In this document: piece by piece, positions 9,097 to 40,007 of the stretch
How the letters are laid out: each line of letters starts with the position of its first letter
Numbering within the stretch: position 1 is the first letter of the stretch
Source: an uncultured Verrucomicrobiae bacterium
GTDB taxonomy: Bacteria; Verrucomicrobiota; Verrucomicrobiia; Verrucomicrobiales; Akkermansiaceae
Direction: 5' to 3'
Length of the DNA: 64,000 bases
Assembly: GCA_963815205.1 (NCBI GenBank)
Contig: CAWFFP010000003.1
Span: 123,984-187,983, forward strand
The notes under the pieces: model-generated
The model's input: only the letters and a program-made list of their open reading frames with translations
What the model was told of the DNA's origin: nothing
Database searches by the model: none
Program-made: the position numbers and the translations under genes

Positions 9097-10482
9097 TTAT
9101 AGTAGTTGATCCGTTTCAGCTGTTCGAGCTTTGTGAACCTCTTCGAATTTCCTCCCCATTGTTGTGTTGTTCTGCGTCAATTTTTTGACCGTGACATCCT
9201 GAGCCTTCTCGTTTGCTAGTCGCAAGTTATTTTCAGACTTTAATAATGCGTCTCTAGTTTTCTGAAGGTGATTAATCGATTTATCAATTTCTGAAACCGC
9301 TGTCTGGAATTGCCTTGAAGCCAGTTCATAGTTTCTTCCGAACTTAGTTTTAAAGTCTTCTAAATCAGCCTCGAAATCAGTGACATCGATATTCTGTGCT
9401 TTGACCAGGGCTAGTTCTGCCTTGTATGCGATCGAACTGAGCGCAGCATTTCTTAGTAATGTAATCATCGGCATGAAGAACTGTGGGCGGATTACATACA
9501 TCTTTTTATACCGGTGCGACACATCCACGATTCCCATATTGTAGAGTTCGCTCTCCGGTTCTAGCAGCGAAACCAAGATAGCGTATTCACAACCCTTCTC
9601 ATTCCGGTCCTTATCTAGCTCCTTGAAGAAGTCTTCATTTTTTTTCTTCGTCGCCGTCGTATCGTTTTCATTCTTCATTTCGAACATGATCGAAACAATC
9701 TCTGTTCCCGCCTGATCTAGGTCCTTAAAAATAAAATCTCCTTTGCTGCCACTGCTCGCATTGTTGTCTTTTTCGAAATAGGCCCGCGGGAATGCAGTGG
9801 CTCGGATCCGATTAAATTCAATTTCACAATGTTGCTCGAGCGTCTCCCCGACCATTTTTGTGGAAAGCCTTGCCTTGAAATCTTTGAGACGCTCAATCTC
9901 TTGGTCTCGATCTCGCAATCGGATTTCATACTGATCCACCAGTGCTTTCTCAGCAACTTGCTTTTCGAGAGCCGCCTGCCCTAGGTTGTGCTTCAAAGCA
10001 TCGCGCTCTTTTTCAACCGCGCTCACTGCTTCAGTAACTGCCAGCTTCTCGCTGAGCTCTTTAGCGTTGAGCCGGTTGATAAGCCCTTCGATCTCCTTCT
10101 GGCTTTCGATTTTCGCTATCTTCTCTGCGTTTTCGCTATGAACCTTTGTCTGCTCAAGTAGGTGAATTGCCTGATCCCGCTCCTTTTGAATGCTCATCAC
10201 AGCGCTATTGATCGCTAATTTTTGATCCGTATTTCTTGCCTCTAATTGAGCCTTTAACTCTTGGATTGCGGCCTCTTTCTGATGAGCCTCTGCCTGTAGC
10301 TCACGGCCGAATTTCTCAGTTGCTAGAGCAACAGCATTAACTTTATCTTTTTCAGCTAGCTCTAATCGTTCGTGAAGCTGCGCATCAAATTCTTTGTTAC
10401 GCACCTGTTTAAGGATTTCGGCATATCCAGTCTCGTCGATCTTGAAGGCTTTCCCACAGTGAGGGCATGAAATGTCAGTCAT
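9097..10482 (-). CDS. DUF2130-family protein: zinc ribbon, long coiled coil and a C-terminal D..E.K nuclease-like core
   Basis: The N-terminus is CPHCGKAF and the middle is heptad-rich. The C-terminal part contains GDFIFKD...IMFEMKNE. Confidence 0.7.
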   Translation of the reverse strand: MTDISCPHCGKAFKIDETGYAEILKQVRNKEFDAQLHERLELAEKDKVNAVALATEKFGRELQAEAHQKEAAIQELKAQLEARNTDQKLAINSAVMSIQKERDQAIHLLEQTKVHSENAEKIAKIESQKEIEGLINRLNAKELSEKLAVTEAVSAVEKERDALKHNLGQAALEKQVAEKALVDQYEIRLRDRDQEIERLKDFKARLSTKMVGETLEQHCEIEFNRIRATAFPRAYFEKDNNASSGSKGDFIFKDLDQAGTEIVSIMFEMKNENDTTATKKKNEDFFKELDKDRNEKGCEYAILVSLLEPESELYNMGIVDVSHRYKKMYVIRPQFFMPMITLLRNAALSSIAYKAELALVKAQNIDVTDFEADLEDFKTKFGRNYELASRQFQTAVSEIDKSINHLQKTRDALLKSENNLRLANEKAQDVTVKKLTQNNTTMGRKFEEVHKARTAETDQLL

Positions 10483-29248: not shown

Positions 29249-31208
29249 CGGGTCATCCTCCACGGGTGTGGGGAAAGCTAGAATCCGGGCGCGGTCCTCC
29301 GGTCTGCTGCCGGGTCATCCCCACGGGTGCGGGGAAAGCTCTGATAGCTCATTCGCCAGCACCTGCATGTTCGGGTCATCCCCACGGGTGTGGGGAAAGC
29401 AGCGCCTCTCTTGTCGCTCCTGTCGCTCCTGTCGCTCCTGTCGCTCCTGTCGCTCCTGTCGCTATATTCGGGTCATCCCCACGGGTGTGGGGAAAGCTTC
29501 TTCCGCTCCCAATGCTGGACCGCATTCATCGGGTCATCCCCACGGGTGTGGGGAAAGCTCCAAGATTATTTCAAGGTATTCACTACCATCGGGTCATCCC
29601 CACGGGTGTGGGGAAAGCCTCTCCATTGTCGACCTCTGACAGCCAGCCCTCGGGTCATCCCCACGGGTGTGGGGAAAGCGCAATGATTAGGGGCGCAGAA
29701 TGCGAGGATTGCGGGTCATCCCCACGGGTGTGGGGAAAGCATTGTCATAATCCGCAAGCACCCGCGCGACAGCGGGTCATCCCCACGGGTGTGGGGAAAG
29801 CGTTTCCCTGATGAATTTTCTGCTGCGGATAGTCGGGTCATCCCCACGGGTGTGGGGAAAGCTCGTTGCCCCGGATATTGAAATAGACGGTGATCGGGTC
29901 ATCCCCACGGGTGTGGGGAAAGCGGAAATTCTTTATTCTTACCCTTCTTTATCTTCGGGTCATCCCCACGGGTGTGGGGAAAGCATCTACGCACCTGATG
30001 CATAATCTACCGAGACGGGTCATCCCCACGGGTGTGGGGAAAGCCTGAGCCATTGGCGGGAGATCTCGCGGACGCCCGGGTCATCCCCACGGGTGTGGGG
30101 AAAGCTCTTCAGGCAGAGTCATTTCGTCCTAATCGCGCGGGTCATCCCCACGGGTGTGGGGAAAGCGAGGCCGTTGATCTCAGCCGCCTTGTTATACTCG
30201 GGTCATCCCCACGGGTGTGGGGAAAGCGAAGACACGCATACGGGACAGTCGGCTCCAAGTCGGGTCATCCCCACGGGTGTGGGGAAAGCCGCCTGCTGGT
30301 ATTCTGCCCAGCATCTTTCATCGGGTCATCCCCACGGGTGTGGGGAAAGCGTTCGAAGACGCTCAAGCTCGCGATGGGATTTCGGGTCATCCCCACGGGT
30401 GTGGGGAAAGCGCGAGGGGTTCGGATTCAGGCTTAGCTGGCGGCGGGTCATCCCCACGGGTGTGGGGAAAGCGTCGCCGGGGCAGAGGAATCAGCCCGCC
30501 GCCGCGGGTCATCCCCACGGGTGTGGGGAAAGCGTCGTGATGCCCCGAAACAATACCCCACCCAGCGGGTCATCCCCACGGGTGTGGGGAAAGCATTCTG
30601 AACGATGCGGACAGGGTTCTGGTGCAGGGGTCATCCCCACGGGTGTGGGGAAAGCGGGTTATTGAGTTCAGTCAGCTCCAGCGATACCGGGTCATCCCCA
30701 CGGGTGTGGGGAAAGCAAGCCGTAAATGATTATTCGGATCGATTAAATTGCCGGGTCATCCCCACGGGTGTGGGGAAAGCATGGTACTTTGAGTTGAAAC
30801 TGAAGATGCTGACGGGTCATCCCCACGGGTGTGGGGAAAGCCGCCCCAGCCGGACCGCCTGGCCAGTAATCCTCGGGTCATCCCCACGGGTGTGGGGAAA
30901 GCGATATGCGGAAACAGGCAGTAGCCGAACATCTCGGGTCATCCCCACGGGTGTGGGGAAAGCTTGCTCAGATGAGATGCCCGTTATCACCATCTGCGGG
31001 TCATCCCCACGGGTGTGGGGAAAGCACATCATCGCCTGCTTCGCCTGTCCCATGATCCGGGTCATCCCCACGGGTGTGGGGAAAGCGAGGCGATTCCATA
31101 ATTCTGCAAAGCCGAGCTCGGGTCATCCCCACGGGTGTGGGGAAAGCAGACATGGATCAAGCGGAGCATGCGCCGAGTGCGGGTCATCCCCACGGGTGTG
31201 GGGAAAGC
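29249..31208 (-). CRISPR. type I-E CRISPR array, 32 repeats and 31 spacers
   Basis: The 29-nt repeat in transcript orientation is GCTTTCCCCACACCCGTGGGGATGACCCG, which matches the E. coli I-E repeat architecture. 25 spacers are 32 nt; the others are 31, 31, 33, 33, 35 and 68 nt. The two repeats at the 29249 end are degenerate (a 1-nt insertion and a T>C change), consistent with the leader lying at the 31208 end. The repeat at 30627 has one variant base. Confidence 0.97.
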
Positions 31209-33324: not shown

Positions 33325-34372
<1,048 letters not shown>

Positions 34373-34386
34373 TCAGGAGTTGGGTT

Positions 34387-35035
34387 TTAGATTGGAGATA
34401 GGCAGAGCATTCCGAAGCCGAAGGCTTTTGCAGAGCCGATGCCGGTGCGGACAGATTGCTGGAAGAGTGTGGGATTGGTCACTTTGAGGAGGCCGGTGAA
34501 CTCGGTGGCAGTGTGGATGCCGTGGTGGCGTGTTTCGGAGGTTTTATCTTTTTTGCTAAAGGGTTGGCGCGGGCGCGGGCTGGTCTTGAGGGTGGAGATC
34601 TCGATCGCGAAGCCATGTTGCGCGGCTTTGCGGGTGAGCCATGCGATGAGTTCCTCGCGGTTGTAGATTGGCTCGCGGCGTCCGTTTTTCCTGCGCTTGC
34701 CAGCCTCGTCCCGGATGACGCGTTTGACGGTGGGGTTGGCGAGGAGTGAAAAGCGAGTACTGGCGGTGGGAGAGAAAACCGTCCGAAATGGGGCGCGATT
34801 CCCATTTTTCCTTAGGACACCAATCGGGGCGTGTGGGCGGCTGGGGGGACTGGATGAGCAGCCGGAAGCCATCGCCGGTATCGTCCAGGCGGGTGAGAAA
34901 ATCGCGGTTGGCTGCGGGTTTCTCCGGGAAGGCTTCCCAGATGCGTTTGTGCCAAGCGTAGCTATCCCGGAAGCCGCCGTCCTTTTGCCAGCGGGCGGCG
35001 ATTTCATAGGAGATGAGGGCGCGGGTGAGGATCAT
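34387..35035 (-). pseudogene. cas6e: crRNA endoribonuclease Cas6e (CasE), frameshifted at about 34755-34760
   Basis: The N-terminus MILTRALISYEI...WHKRIWEAFPEKPAANRDFLTRL lies in the frame of ORF 34556..35092. The C-terminus RFSLLANPTVKR...GIGSAKAFGFGMLCLSPI lies in the frame of ORF 34387..35007. The junction reads CAG TAC [T] CGC TTT TCA. The ATG overlaps the cas11 stop as ATGA. Confidence 0.85.
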
Positions 35036-35584: not shown

Positions 35585-37075
35585 TCAAGCGGTGGCGGAT
35601 TTTTTGGCTGCGGATTTCTTCGGAGGCTTGGGGAAAAGAGCGTTGTGCAGCGGGCGGTAGCCGAGCGCGAAGGCCTCTTTTTGGCGCGGAGTGCTGCGTG
35701 GGCAGACGGCCTCGTAGGCGGCGATGGCAGCGGCGCGGACGATGAGTGTCCATGGGTCTGCCGCTCCAATGCTGCCGATGGCGGGCTGGCCAAGTTGCGG
35801 ATCGGCGGCCATTTCGATGAGTGCGCGGTGTTTCTGATCCAAGTGGTGCCAGTAGTGCTGCTGCCCTTCTGTAACGGGCGGGTGCTCGTGACTCAGTGAG
35901 GAGCCGTATGTGCGGATGGCTCCGTAAAGTTTGGTCGAAATAAGTTCGGCGTATTCGACACCGGCGGTGTAAAGGGTGCGCCCAGGAACAGCAAAGAGGC
36001 CACGCGGCACGGAAAAGGTGGATTCTGCTGTATCGAGGATCTTTGCTTTTAGATCGGTGATCAGTGCGCCTGTCCAAAGCTCGACAGTTTCGTTTTGCAT
36101 AGCTGCACGATGGCTCTGAAGGACGAGGGCGGCATCAGGATTGTTTTCAGCGCCAGCCCGCAGGGCGGTGAGATGGTGGAGATCCCGCCAGATTGACCGA
36201 TCAAGGCGCGCGGGAGCGATGCGGCGGGCGCCTTTGCGGTTGGTGACGATGGAGACGGATGGCTCGCGGTGAGGTTCCCAGTTTGGATAAATAAGGCTCT
36301 TGTTGCTGTGAAAAAAAACGGTTAGGTCAGAGGCGAGCCGTAGGGAACGGTGGCGAGGAACCAGACGTCCGAGCAGGGTTTGCGTGGAGCCCTCGAGGTC
36401 GGCGGCAGTTTCGCATTCCCAGATCGGCTTGCCGAAGGATTCGTGGGCGGTGTGGAAGATGCTTTCAGCATCTAGCATATTGTTGATGACGGTGTCGCGG
36501 AGCTGTTTCCCCAGCAATACGCAGTGGATTCCATTTGCGTCTGCGCAGGGGCCGCGACCTTTATATCCGGCGCCGTAAAGTGGGTAGAAATTCTGGAAAG
36601 TGAGCAGTGCGAGTGCGAGATCCGCAGGCTCGAAACTACGACTTGCGGACATCCCCCCGTGGTCGAGGAGGGTGGGATTATTGCCAGTCGCTAGGTGCGG
36701 AAATAGCTTGGAAGCGGAGACGGTATCACCTTTCTCCGGGACATTTTCTTGGAGGAACCGCAGTCCATCACCGAGGAGATTGAAGTGCGGGTGGATATCC
36801 GGACGGGCTAGGTAGTTGGCAACAGCGGGCTCAAGATCATCGCCGAAGTCTTCCCATTCGTCCGAATCATCGGGAACACCCAACGCGGCGTGGGCAATGC
36901 AGACGAGCAGGCGGGTGACTGCGATGCGCTCGTGCGGGGCGGCATCAAGATCGGCAATTTCTCGGCAGCGTGCGAAGGCATCGTGGAGGGAGACAAGGCG
37001 GGATGTCTCTCCGTTGGCGGTGGGCAGCCAGCGGACAGGAATCCACGGGTTTTCGATGAGGTTAAATCTGGTCAT
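35585..37075 (-). CDS. cas8e: Cascade large subunit Cse1/Cas8e (CasA)
   Basis: 496 aa. The N-terminus FNLIENPWIPVRW is the Cse1 signature. It sits between cas3 and cse2. Confidence 0.85.
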   Translation of the reverse strand: MTRFNLIENPWIPVRWLPTANGETSRLVSLHDAFARCREIADLDAAPHERIAVTRLLVCIAHAALGVPDDSDEWEDFGDDLEPAVANYLARPDIHPHFNLLGDGLRFLQENVPEKGDTVSASKLFPHLATGNNPTLLDHGGMSASRSFEPADLALALLTFQNFYPLYGAGYKGRGPCADANGIHCVLLGKQLRDTVINNMLDAESIFHTAHESFGKPIWECETAADLEGSTQTLLGRLVPRHRSLRLASDLTVFFHSNKSLIYPNWEPHREPSVSIVTNRKGARRIAPARLDRSIWRDLHHLTALRAGAENNPDAALVLQSHRAAMQNETVELWTGALITDLKAKILDTAESTFSVPRGLFAVPGRTLYTAGVEYAELISTKLYGAIRTYGSSLSHEHPPVTEGQQHYWHHLDQKHRALIEMAADPQLGQPAIGSIGAADPWTLIVRAAAIAAYEAVCPRSTPRQKEAFALGYRPLHNALFPKPPKKSAAKKSATA

Positions 37076-37164
37076 AACCGGAAAAATTTTGGATGGTCAA
37101 CAGGGCGAATCGAACCTTAGTCCTAACATTACTAAATGTGAGCGATCTCCCGATCTCTCTGTTC

Positions 37165-37195
37165 AAGGGCGTGGTGGTTTTTCAGCCACGCCCTT
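37165..37195. other. 10-bp GC-rich hairpin in the cas8e 5' region
   Basis: aagggcgtgg-(11 nt)-ccacgccctt. On the plus strand it is followed by tttcttatttc, which looks like a terminator. On the minus strand it would sit at the 5' end of a cas8e transcript started from the putative promoter at 37228..37200. Confidence 0.5.
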
Positions 37196-37232
37196 TCTTA
37201 TTTCAAAAATATTTCGGAGTCAAATCAAAAAG

Positions 37233-37256
37233 AAGTAGCGGAGCGTTAAAGAAGAA
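37233..37256 (+). promoter_or_regulatory. AAG PAM plus a partial protospacer matching the mini-CRISPR pseudo-spacer
   Basis: The site reads AAG|TAGCGGAGCGTTAAAGAAGAA; the pseudo-spacer is TAGCGCAGGGTAAAACGAGTG. Positions 1-5, 7-8, 10-11 and 13-15 are identical. Two of the three mismatches within the first 15 positions fall at positions 6 and 12. The site lies between weak sigma70-like hexamers on both strands: minus TTGATT-N17-TGAAAT at 37228..37200, and plus TTGCTT-N16-TAAGAG at 37260..37287. Confidence 0.5.
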
Positions 37257-37290
37257 AGGTTGCTTTTGTTTCAATTTTAGATAAGAGTTT

Positions 37291-37369
37291 CCTGTCCCTA
37301 TAAAAGTAGGGATGGCCCGTAGCGCAGGGTAAAACGAGTGCCCTTCCCCACAAAAGTGGGGATCAATAC
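37291..37369 (+). CRISPR. degenerate two-repeat mini-CRISPR (psiR1, 21-nt psi-spacer, psiR2), creR/creA-like
   Basis: psiR1 (37291-37319) is CCTGTCCCTATAAAAGTAGGGATGGCCCG. It keeps 11 of the last 13 nt of the true repeat, including the crRNA 5'-handle ATGgCCCG. psiR2 (37341-37369) is CCCTTCCCCACAAAAGTGGGGATCAATAC. It keeps the exact Cas6e hairpin stem TCCCCAC/GTGGGGA but has lost the 3' handle. The orientation is opposite to the main array. Confidence 0.6.
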
Positions 37370-37490
37370 CAGGAATCCTCTGGTCTCACTGTCGTGTGCT
37401 GTGCTGTTGCTGATTTTTTGCCATGTGATCCCGATTTCGCTTGTATGTTCAAATGAGTAATTCAAGAACTGACCGGAGGGAAGATCCAAT

Positions 37491-40007
37491 TTACTGGAAT
37501 CGGATTTCACAACCGCGATGACGGCATCCGGGATGTGAAGGCGGAGCCATTCCGGGGATTTCGTTAAAGGCTGGGCGGACGAGGTATGCGGGGATGCGGA
37601 TGGCGTTTTCGTGAAGGGCGCGGGCGAGCGGATAGGAGAAGATGCCGCCCGCCGGGCAGGATACCGCATCGCCGTGGATGGGACGGACGGTGACAGAACC
37701 GGCGCGGACTTCCGGGTGCTCCCGCAGAAGGATGAGGTGGGCGGTGGGCTGGATGCGCCAGCGGGTTTCGGTACCTTCCCTATCGTCCATGGCACTGGCG
37801 AAGACGTGGCGGGTTTTGGCGGTGCCTTGCTGATCGAGCCGTTTGCGTTGTGCATCGGGAAGAAATTGATCGAAGGCGCGGAGGATGGCTGGGTCTGGCT
37901 TGGCGGCGGCGGAGGATTCCAGCAATGGGCGGATCTCGCCGGGGAGCGTGATGGATGTTCGTTTTCCTAAAGTTTCAAGGGACTGCCAGAGGGCGAGCGG
38001 TGGATAGATGAAGTGATGGGGGGCAAGGGCAGTTTCGATTTCCTTAGCACCGGCCTGCCAGTCTGCGGATGGCTGAAGAATGTGGCAGGTGGGTATTTCA
38101 CAGCCAAGGGGCCGCGTGTGAGGGTGGCGCTGAAGGCGTCCGATGCGCTGAAGGATGAGCTCGGTGGGGGCAAGATCGGTGACGAGCAGGTCGGCATCGA
38201 TATCCACCGATTGCTCGACAATCTGAGTGGCGACGAGCAGGGAGCCGGACGGGCGTTCTTTGGAATTTTTCCCGAGAAGGGAGATCCAGCGGCCTTCGTT
38301 TTCCTGACGGTGATGATGGGTGAAACGGGAATGGAGAAGCCCGCAGTGCTCCGCTGGTATGGAATCATTGAGCAGGCTTTTGAGATGGAGGAAGGTTTGC
38401 TGAGCTAGTGCGACGGTATTGCGGATGACAACGACATTGGCACCAGCGTTGACGCGGCTGGCGATGGCTTGCCAGTAGGCATCGGAGTTTTCCGCGGAAA
38501 GGGTCTGATGATGGATCGCGACGATTTTCTCCGGGGTGGGATCGGAGACTTCTATGTGGTTGGCAGTGGTCTCTCCGGTTGCGACTTTGGTGATGAGCGG
38601 GTAGGCGTAAGGAGAAGTGGCCTCGGAGGCACCAGCGGCGGCGACAAGCTCTGCGCGGCGGGCGGCGGTGAGTGTGGCAGAGAGGATGATGACGGTTGCG
38701 CCGGTGGGCAGGAGAAACGTGATGAGGCGGTCGATAAGCGCTGACATGTAAGGATCGTAGGCGTGGACTTCGTCGATGACGACGACCTTGCCCGCGAGTG
38801 CGAAGTGGCGCAGAGCGGCGAAGCGGGCGGGAAGGATAGCAAGGAGTGCTTGATCAATGGTGCCGGTGCCGAAGGGAGCGAGGAGCTGGCGGCGGGTGGA
38901 TGAAAACCATTTGAGAGCTTCATCGGTATCGCTGTTCTCTTCGGTGGGTGGGCCGATGGCGCGGTTGCGTTTTTCGTCCAGCCATGCATTGCCATGGACG
39001 AGGGATTGGTAGGCAGGAGAATCGAGAATGGCGGCGAGGAAAGGAGTGGATGCGATCGTGGATTTTCGCGGAGGTGAGCTGGGTGGGCAGAGCGAAGTAG
39101 AGGCCGCGCTCGTCTCCTGTAGTCCAGCGTTGGTAGGCGGCGGCGAGGGCGGCCTCGGTTTTGCCGGTGCCCATCGGAGCCTCGACGATATAAAGGCCGG
39201 GGCGGTCGGCGGCTTTCAAAAAAGCCTTCTGGAGCGGCGTGGGGGGAAATAGATCGGGTTCTTCGGGATTGAAAAGCTGGCCAAAGGAAAGCTGCGGGCG
39301 GACACACAGAGGCATTCCGAACTGGGTGAGAACTGTCTCTTGTTTTCAGCTCGATGACTTTCGGGTTGAACGTTTTATGCAGTGGGAACCAATCGGGGTT
39401 CGATCCGATCCAGTCGGCGAAAATCGTGAAACCGGTTAGCAGGTGAGCGCGGATTTCCTGCTCTTTGGCTGGCTCTTCCGGGAGTTTCCCGAAGGTTTCG
39501 ATCAGGCTGGAGAGGAGTTCGTCGCGCAGTTGCTCGAACTGTGGGTGGATGCCGGAGCTTCCCGCACCTTCGAAAAATCCGTGAGGAGAAGCCTTGAAAC
39601 CGACGTTGGTAGGAGCCGTGATGTCCGGCGGTGGAGGTGAGCCATTTCAGCGCTGACTTTCTATGGGCTGTGATTCGGCGTGGGCAAGGTGCCATGCGCT
39701 GACATGGGCGTGGCGCGTTTCAAGTCCGCTGTGGTGAGATCGTGCGCTTAGTGCCTCGATGATGCTTCCATTGGTCACACTTAAGCTGGAAGCCCGGCGT
39801 AAGCTTTCCTAGGTCGTGCGCTGCGACAAGAGCCACAACCCCTTCAGGCAGGGCGGCTATTACGGCTTTCGGCAAATTTCCCCAAAGCACCTTCGCAACG
39901 TGTCCGACGATGCGGCAGTGGTCCTCAACGCTAAGCGCGGGCAGTTTGGATACTGGGTCAGTTTTTGCCCAACAGTCCGAGAGTTTTATTTGGAGTCCGG
40001 CATGCAT
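37491..40007 (-). pseudogene. cas3: Cas3 HD-nuclease/helicase, disrupted by about five frameshifts
   Basis: The Cas3 motifs are spread over three frames. CWAKT...AAHDLGK is in frame A to about 39770. RHAHVSAWHL is in frame B. STAGHHG is back in frame A. SSGIHPQFEQLRDELL...FADWIGSNPDWF is in frame B. APMGTGKTEAALAAA...FALPTQLT is in frame C to about 39040. LAAILDS...VVVIDEVHAYD...ILSATL...LVATQIVEQSVDID...RIGRLQRH runs in frame A to the stop at 37491. Confidence 0.9.

Follow-up and report, generated by a model that had tools for sequence, protein, structure and literature searches.

A predicted Cascade-guiding mini-CRISPR upstream of cas8e in type I-E loci of Verrucomicrobiota

Between cas3 and cas8e of a type I-E CRISPR locus from an uncultured Verrucomicrobiae bacterium lie two degenerate copies of the array repeat, read antisense to the cas genes, and the question raised by this locus is whether they form a guide that directs Cascade to a site beside its own promoter. 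The locus is carried by a stretch of 64,000 nucleotides (contig CAWFFP010000003.1, positions 123,984 to 187,983), here called the window, which belongs to a Verrucomicrobiota genome; the nearest Cas8e relative, 85% identical, comes from a Verrucomicrobiota metagenome-assembled genome (MAG). A first-pass annotation, made from the sequence alone, had read the element as CreR/CreA-like. Shuffled-sequence controls, the occurrence of the element in related loci and the co-variation of guide and target all favour that reading, and we consider it very likely that a Verrucomicrobiota type I-E system here carries a Cas-regulating mini-CRISPR of the CreR or cr-like RNA class.

The first degenerate repeat, psiR1 (37291-37319, plus strand, CCTGTCCCTATAAAAGTAGGGATGGCCCG), is identical to the array repeat GCTTTCCCCACACCCGTGGGGATGACCCG at 20 of 29 positions, and the second, psiR2 (37341-37369, plus strand, CCCTTCCCCACAAAAGTGGGGATCAATAC), at 19 of 29. 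When all 29-mers on both strands of the window were compared with the array repeat (about 124,000 positions), these were the two top matches outside the array, all others reaching 18/29 at most. They stand 50 nt apart on one strand, antisense to the cas genes, in the gap upstream of cas8e, and they enclose a spacer-like guide of 21 nt (37320-37340, plus strand, TAGCGCAGGGTAAAACGAGTG); both had been placed and spelled correctly in the first-pass annotation. The two units have degenerated in a complementary way. psiR1 keeps the part that would give the 5' handle (ATGGCCCG against ATGACCCG in the array), and its hairpin is kept by a compensatory change from C-G to U-A, CCCTAT/GTAGGG replacing CCCCAC/GTGGGG; the hairpin is closed by a U·G pair. 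In psiR2 the Cas6e-type stem CCCCAC/GTGGGG is exact and encloses the loop AAAA. This division of labour, described earlier for the window, was confirmed letter by letter and recurs in seven aligned modules. Folding of the 85-nt precursor forms both hairpins (z = -3.7). The final 7 nt of psiR2 (37363-37369) overlap the stop codon and the last two codons of cas3, and the overlap is present in every related module, where it reads TTA/TCA, then A/G-A-A/T-CCA. The apparent divergence of the psiR2 3' end is therefore explained by the need of these nucleotides to encode the Cas3 C-terminus. The element departs from a canonical adaptive array in that its repeats are 66-69% identical to the consensus and its spacer is 21 nt long (against about 32 nt), and it has what marks the CreR class: two degenerate units flanking one spacer, complementary degeneration, and a seed-anchored match at the cognate protospacer adjacent motif (PAM).

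The predicted Cascade binding site is found at 37233-37256 on the plus strand, with the PAM AAG at 37233-37235 and the protospacer from 37236, and it starts 84 nt upstream of the spacer. Guide and target are identical at positions 1-5, 7-8, 10-11, 13-15 and 18-19, so that 12 positions agree among the first 15 and only 6, 9 and 12 do not. The AAG PAM, the seed identity and the 12/15 match given by the first-pass annotation were all borne out. Type I Cascade flips out every sixth spacer position (6, 12), which is not used in pairing. The combination of AAG and the seed (positions 1-5 and 7-8) occurs only here in the 64 kb, both strands considered. In dinucleotide-preserving shuffles of the remaining intergenic region it appeared in 40 of 200,000, and when any of four I-E PAMs was allowed beside the seed the count was 121 of 200,000, so the match is not a product of chance. 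The site is further supported by co-variation among related loci, as described below.

We gathered 191 loci, mostly around Cas8e relatives (L-numbers below), and in most of them the cas3 stop codon lies 5-40 bp from the cas8e start. A minority (L002, L028, L084, L172-174 and L191) has a gap of about 300 bp which aligns end to end with that of the window; L028 is Haloferula luteola YC6886, a named strain whose record is not labelled as a MAG. A variant module with a 31-nt spacer is present in L003, and a minimal module of 133 bp in L011/L089. At least eight other loci, almost all labelled Verrucomicrobiota and representing six or seven distinct lineages, thus carry the module upstream of cas8e, and the recurrence of the same intergenic element in related I-E loci, on which the first-pass annotation had staked its reading, is thereby established. 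In every module psiR2, spacer and psiR1 are antisense to the cas genes, and 40-105 nt upstream of the spacer there is a target flanked by AAG. The spacer measures 20-22 nt in six related modules.

The guide and its target read, in that order, TAGCGCAGGGTAAAACG and TAGCGGAGCGTTAAAGA in the window, TAGCGAAGTAAAAAAAG and TAGCTAAGTAAAAAAAG in L002, TCGCGCAGAGTTGCTCG and TCGCGAAGAGTTGCTCA in L028, TATTGAAGCGGTGAAAG and TATTGGAGTGGTGAAAG in L084, TAGCGAAGCGAGAAATG and TAGCGAAGCGATAAATA in L191, CGCAGCGCGAAGACAAA and CGCAGAGCGAAAACAAA in L003, and TTTATCAAAGGCG and TTTATAAAAGGTG in L011, while in L172 the guide is TAGCGAACTGGTGAAAG and the target is identical to it; the pairs of L191 and L011 were read manually. 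Within the first 17 positions the cognate pairs share 12-17 identities and the non-cognate pairs 2-13, and the PAM is AAG at all targets, so the co-variation of pseudo-spacer and target by which the first-pass annotation could be judged is indeed seen. Mismatches are few overall and mostly concern positions 6 and 12. Five of the eight distinct modules have one at position 6 (window, L028, L084, L003 and L011), and four have one at position 12 (window, L003, L011 and L191). In all loci, L003 with its long spacer included, the pairing ceases at about position 17. Such co-variation is hard to explain without selection for pairing, and the module-bearing loci compared have Cas8e proteins only 41-63% identical.

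The repeats behave in the same manner across these loci. The handle of psiR1 equals that of the local array within 0-2 nt and its stem drifts with compensation, while the psiR2 stem is exact. Six of the seven aligned modules have a psiR2 loop of the form [AC]AA[AC], L003 having CTTC instead, and this shared loop suggests that the modules are homologous and not independently derived.

We propose the following mechanism. From a promoter immediately preceding psiR1, plus-strand transcription of the mini-array would run away from cas8e towards cas3 and enter its 3' end. Cleavage by Cas6e at the bases of both hairpins would release an RNA of about 50 nt, made up of the 8-nt handle AUGGCCCG, the 21-nt guide and a 21-nt 3' hairpin. 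Cascade loaded with this RNA would recognise AAG at 37233-37235 and pair over about the first 15-17 positions, 6 and 12 being free to mismatch. As the guide does not pair as far as the PAM-distal end, Cas3 would go unlicensed and leave the chromosome uncut. As the target lies between divergent promoter-like boxes, one for the cas8e operon and one for the mini-array, the bound Cascade would repress its own synthesis and probably also that of its guide.

The promoter positions were assigned solely from conserved TTGACA-like and TTGC-like boxes. For the mini-array the putative promoter is at 37260-37287 on the plus strand, with a -35-like TTGCTT (37260-37265) and a -10-like TAAGAG (37282-37287). 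A box starting with TTG is found at this place in all seven aligned modules (TTGC in five of them), just past the PAM-distal end of the target, and about 15-17 nt further on follows a TA-rich hexamer ending a few nucleotides before psiR1. On the minus strand the putative promoter of the cas8e operon is at 37195-37223 (TTGACT at 37223-37218, 17 nt, TAAGAA at 37200-37195). Its -35-like box is 9 nt from the PAM in the window and 0-12 nt across modules, and the aligned modules conserve, in register, the succession of this box (in most of them TTGAC), a 17-nt interval and a hexamer rich in A. The 17-nt spacing is kept even in L191, where the box overlaps the PAM, and the minimal module of L011 has TTGACC-N17-TAATCC adjoining the PAM. 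From these boxes we infer divergent promoters with Cascade parked between them.

At 37165-37203 on the plus strand we find a hairpin, AAGGGCGTGG...CCACGCCCTT, followed by a T-rich run (z = -5.3), which resembles an intrinsic terminator for transcription antisense to cas and overlaps the -10 of the putative cas8e promoter. Its stem is conserved through different sequences in those modules that also carry the tRNA-like RNA described below, and it is canonical only on the strand opposite cas (stem, then T6-7). The hairpin of L172 has a single imperfect pair, which is U·G on the antisense-to-cas strand and C·A on the other.

Several observations weigh against Cascade self-repression through this guide. 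The five closest Cas8e relatives (73-85% identity) are entirely without the module, which makes it dispensable; judged by its distribution among the loci, the module is readily gained and lost. The guide-target match of the window is the weakest of the family, 12/17, and is near the 11/17 of the same guide against the L002 target. A sigma-70 consensus scan of 36800-37800 called no promoter, and the -10-like hexamers are poor. To hold a guide of 21 nt, Cascade would have to contain fewer Cas7 subunits than usual, which is known for E. coli. Finally, the window copies of cas6e and cas7 are frameshifted, so that Cascade may not be made at all.

This last point concerns the state of the locus in the window. 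Compared with L001 and L161, cas3 (37363-40007, minus strand) has about five single-base insertions, near 39757, 39343, 39052, 37576 and 37402, and there are single-base insertions in cas6e near 34782 and in cas7 near 34060. The window genes cas8e, cse2, cas5, cas1 and cas2 are intact and the array looks intact; in the other module-bearing loci the cas genes are all uninterrupted. The frameshifts may be due to sequencing or assembly error. The genes flanking the cas locus are of normal length and spacing, which makes locus-specific decay likelier than assembly error, and the indels lie outside long homopolymers. Given the frameshifting insertions in cas3, cas6e and cas7, the circuit in this genome is probably a recent relic. 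The frameshifts also hide the true end of cas3, and the 415-bp spacer between cas3 and cas8e reported by the first-pass annotation proved to be an artefact of this: when the Cas3 of L161 was aligned to the window in several frames, the C-terminus ...PEDSWY* was found to be encoded as far as the stop codon at 37363-37365, inside psiR2, which leaves a real gap of 287 bp (37076-37362).

The first-pass annotation had found no convincing toxin. This holds as regards a CreT-like mini-ORF (open reading frame), as no small-peptide toxin ORF in the cas3-cas8e gap is conserved, but one candidate was missed, a tRNA-like RNA between the target and cas8e. In five loci the interval from the promoter-like box to cas8e holds the hairpin and, after it on the cas-sense strand, an RNA of 70-72 nt whose 3' end is 12-25 nt before the cas8e start codon (L002 9917-9988, L028 9914-9983, L084 4419-4489, L172 2912-2982 and L191 2905-2975). 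Its acceptor stem has 8 bp, of which two are compensatory (A-U/G-C and U-A/A-U) and one is the invariant G3·U70, and the discriminator base is A73. The D stem has 4-5 bp and a four-base GG loop, the T-loop is the canonical UUCRAYU on a 4-bp stem, and the anticodon-like arm is weak, with the loop UUCCUA. In the alignment 98.8% of cells pair, against 43-58% with partners slid, and the cloverleaf is the minimum-energy structure for L028. CCA is not encoded in the intact copies, and the G·U pairs in the acceptor and T stems point to the cas-sense strand as the functional one. The window has a degenerate copy (37094-37164, minus strand) which keeps a D-arm-like hairpin and the T-loop TTCGATT and ends in ACCA; its acceptor and T stem are eroded, with one of four T-stem pairs left and G3·U70 lost (z = -0.26).

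Searches with general tools did not classify this RNA. ARAGORN found no tRNA or transfer-messenger RNA (tmRNA) in the gap, neither in the window nor in the relatives; Rfam at gathering thresholds gave for the window only rRNA and tRNA genes, located elsewhere than the gap, and a permissive Rfam scan of the window copy returned nothing tRNA-like. The RNA stays below every Rfam threshold (tRNA-Sec 30.2 bits against 47, for L002; Tymo_tRNA-like 21.5 against 40). An nhmmer search with a profile of the element against all gathered loci matched module loci only, and blastn of hairpin plus element against phages and plasmids gave nothing. The literature searched contained no tRNA-like element tied to CRISPR toxins or to cas8. 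Some leads were dropped: a scan of viral contigs with the 5' half gave 11 matches which were due to chance (unrelated G+C-rich sequence, no T arm), a resemblance of the L002 element to the 16S 3' end, as of an anti-Shine-Dalgarno mimic, was not conserved in L028, and the leader of L003 was rejected as not tRNA-like.

G3·U70 and A73 are the identity elements of alanyl-tRNA synthetase (AlaRS), common to tRNA-Ala and tmRNA, and the tRNA-Ala of the window itself carries both. The tRNA-like domain of tmRNA and tRNA-Ala share with the leader element the acceptor G3·U70 and A73, the canonical T-loop and a GG-containing D-loop; the leader element differs in its 8-bp acceptor, 4-bp T stem, poor anticodon arm, lack of an ARAGORN call and sub-threshold Rfam scores. 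It could supply the toxin or cargo that is missing from a CreTA-like module, and it could also be a signal for processing or stability of the cas8e leader.

The first of these possibilities leads to the alternative that survives best, namely that the mini-array is an addiction antitoxin of the CreTA type, whose Cascade-bound guide represses a toxic small tRNA-like RNA, so that loss of Cascade would unleash the toxin; autorepression of cas8e would be possible at the same time. We regard this as unlikely. The promoter-like box adjacent to the PAM reads the conserved tRNA-like RNA first and cas8e only 12-25 nt beyond, and the RNA itself has a cloverleaf-like fold, two compensatory acceptor pairs and an invariant G3·U70 and A73. 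The module is patchy among close relatives, like selfish modules, and the window, the sole locus with broken cas genes, is also the sole locus with a degenerate tRNA-like copy, as addiction predicts. This link is however a matter of one locus, and a dead locus decaying as a whole would account for it just as well. Furthermore the RNA is without the known CreT features (strong ribosome-binding site, repeated rare codons), a short ORF seen in L002 (ATGATGTCTTGG...) is absent from L084, the weak anticodon arm makes decoding doubtful, and the element could be no toxin but simply the processing or stability signal mentioned above. A minimal module without it exists in L011/L089, which indicates that the guide works, or at least persists, in its absence.

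It is tempting to ask what such a toxin might do. A candidate tRNA-like toxin would be released by RNase P or RNase Z and might soak up AlaRS, EF-Tu or processing enzymes, or misdeliver alanine. That a Cascade-controlled promoter drives this RNA ahead of cas8e, and that the RNA is harmful or active once derepressed and hence a new CRISPR-guarding RNA toxin or cargo, is a speculation to which we give rather little credence. If it were true, the eroded window copy beside the frameshifted cas6e and cas7 would be a record of escape from addiction.

Haloarcula hispanica offers the model for the addiction alternative. According to Li et al. (2021), the target of the type I-B CreA is tightly flanked by divergent promoters, as was shown experimentally there, and P_creT and P_cas8 flank one CreA target. 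Both systems have a degenerate mini-CRISPR guiding Cascade to a site between divergent promoters, one of which drives the Cascade genes (in our case putatively). The CreT toxin is mRNA-like, with rare arginine codons and a strong ribosome-binding site, and we find no such element here. The sole candidate here is instead a tRNA-like RNA, and it is co-directional with cas8e and not divergent.

A second alternative is that the element is a non-functional remnant of a former second array, antisense between cas3 and cas8e, with a target match that has no function. We consider this very improbable. In its favour, the cas genes of the window are decaying, and L012, a Haloferula sp. MAG, still has an entire antisense array between cas3 and cas8e (about 9350-9835), comprising about nine repeats, the first two of them 50 nt apart. 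A remnant would however not retain an AAG-flanked target that co-varies with the spacer across Cas8e proteins 41-63% identical, nor complementary repeat degeneration in every locus, and by chance the match would be expected about twice in 10,000; the co-variation of guide and target largely refutes this explanation. That the repeat likeness and the seed match are mere coincidences of an A+T-rich intergenic region, which has 44% G+C and parts of low complexity, has a negligible probability and is already refuted by the repeat scan (its top two matches 50 nt apart), the shuffles and the conservation across loci.

The array of L012 is of interest in its own right. The 50-nt distance of its first two repeats corresponds to a first spacer of 21 nt, while the other repeats are normally spaced; no clear target was found for this first spacer. 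It may represent an intermediate on the way from array to mini-array. Degenerate repeat pairs just upstream of cas8e were also seen in other I-E loci (L127/L128/L130, L055, L026, L024 and L071) with a different repeat type, ending GGGGGTGTTTC where an array is present. These pairs read cas-sense in L127, L055, L026 and L024 and on the opposite strand in L071.

Returning to the reading as a Cas-regulating mini-CRISPR, the design has been published for I-E systems and is thus not new in kind. Shmakov et al. 2023 (bioRxiv 10.1101/2023.03.03.530964 / PMC10120712) found mini-arrays in about 19% of bacterial I-E loci, in long cas3-cas8 gaps, opposite to cas3, with short spacers and a target upstream of cas8 beside AAG that shows sixth-position mismatches. 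The modules described here are alike in their two repeat-like units within a long cas3-cas8 gap, predicted transcription opposed to cas3, partial seed-anchored match to an AAG-flanked site upstream of cas8, sixth-position mismatches, short spacer, better conservation of the seed-side repeat at the handle, and sporadic distribution on the Cas tree. They differ in that psiR2 overlaps the cas3 stop codon and that the spacer is fixed at 20-22 nt in most members. The same paper reports cargo in the form of protein toxin-antitoxin systems and not RNA, whereas five modules here carry the tRNA-like RNA and the antisense terminator.

The closest experimental counterpart is the CreR of Salmonella enterica, for which Liu et al. 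2023 (bioRxiv 10.1101/2023.03.10.532045) report about 8.6-fold repression of P_casA via the E. coli Cascade. Both elements have an 8-nt 5' handle from psiR1, a 3' handle from psiR2, an AAG PAM and no recognised toxin, and the target is about 140 bp upstream of casA in S. enterica and about 160 bp upstream of cas8e here. The S. enterica guide matches over 15 consecutive nucleotides, while the window has an interrupted 12/15 and its relatives 15-17/17. Host phylum and repeat sequence differ, and repression was shown experimentally in S. enterica, while the evidence here is that of sequence. Verrucomicrobia are mentioned neither by Shmakov et al. nor by Liu et al.

As to the rest of the locus, it lies on the minus strand in the order cas3, cas8e, cse2, cas6e, cas7, cas5, cas1, cas2 and then the main array of about 33 repeats (31208-29249), with an rRNA operon immediately after; cas6e preceding cas7 is the gene order of the clade of the window. 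The intact cas8e (cse1; 35585-37075, minus strand) would be the first gene of the putatively regulated Cascade operon. One spacer of the main array (29401-29468) measures 68 nt and is built of a 9-nt unit (CGACAGGAG, array strand) repeated in tandem about six times, and the terminal repeat (29249-29278) has a one-base insertion. Extra genes are found in the I-E operons of relatives (L161 5490-6155 and 8124-8757, L165 7857-8519, L170 12647-13112, and L169-L171 after cas2). They comprise an unannotated gene of about 220 aa in the cas6e-cas7 interval, a PIN-domain pair in the cas5-cas1 interval, a ParE-like pair, and an RNase_T-family exonuclease gene after cas2. In module-less relatives a gene for a WYL/BrxR-type regulator stands just upstream of cas3 (L168 6112-6945, L175-L177 1-41, L178 1-349), which may be an alternative control of the same cas operon.

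Newness is low for the mini-array itself, and a moderate residual interest attaches to the tRNA-like leader. What the family adds is an unusually clean comparative proof, in that guide and target co-vary in about seven independent pairs and are mismatched mainly at the sixth positions which Cascade does not read. The design under selection is a fixed guide of about 21 nt that pairs over about 17 nt. As Haloferula luteola YC6886 is a named strain with a record not labelled as a MAG, the predictions may be testable in culture. The finding would extend guide-RNA-mediated self-repression of Cascade to the Verrucomicrobiota, and the tRNA-like RNA under the same putative control, undescribed in the literature searched, could be a new CRISPR-associated RNA function.

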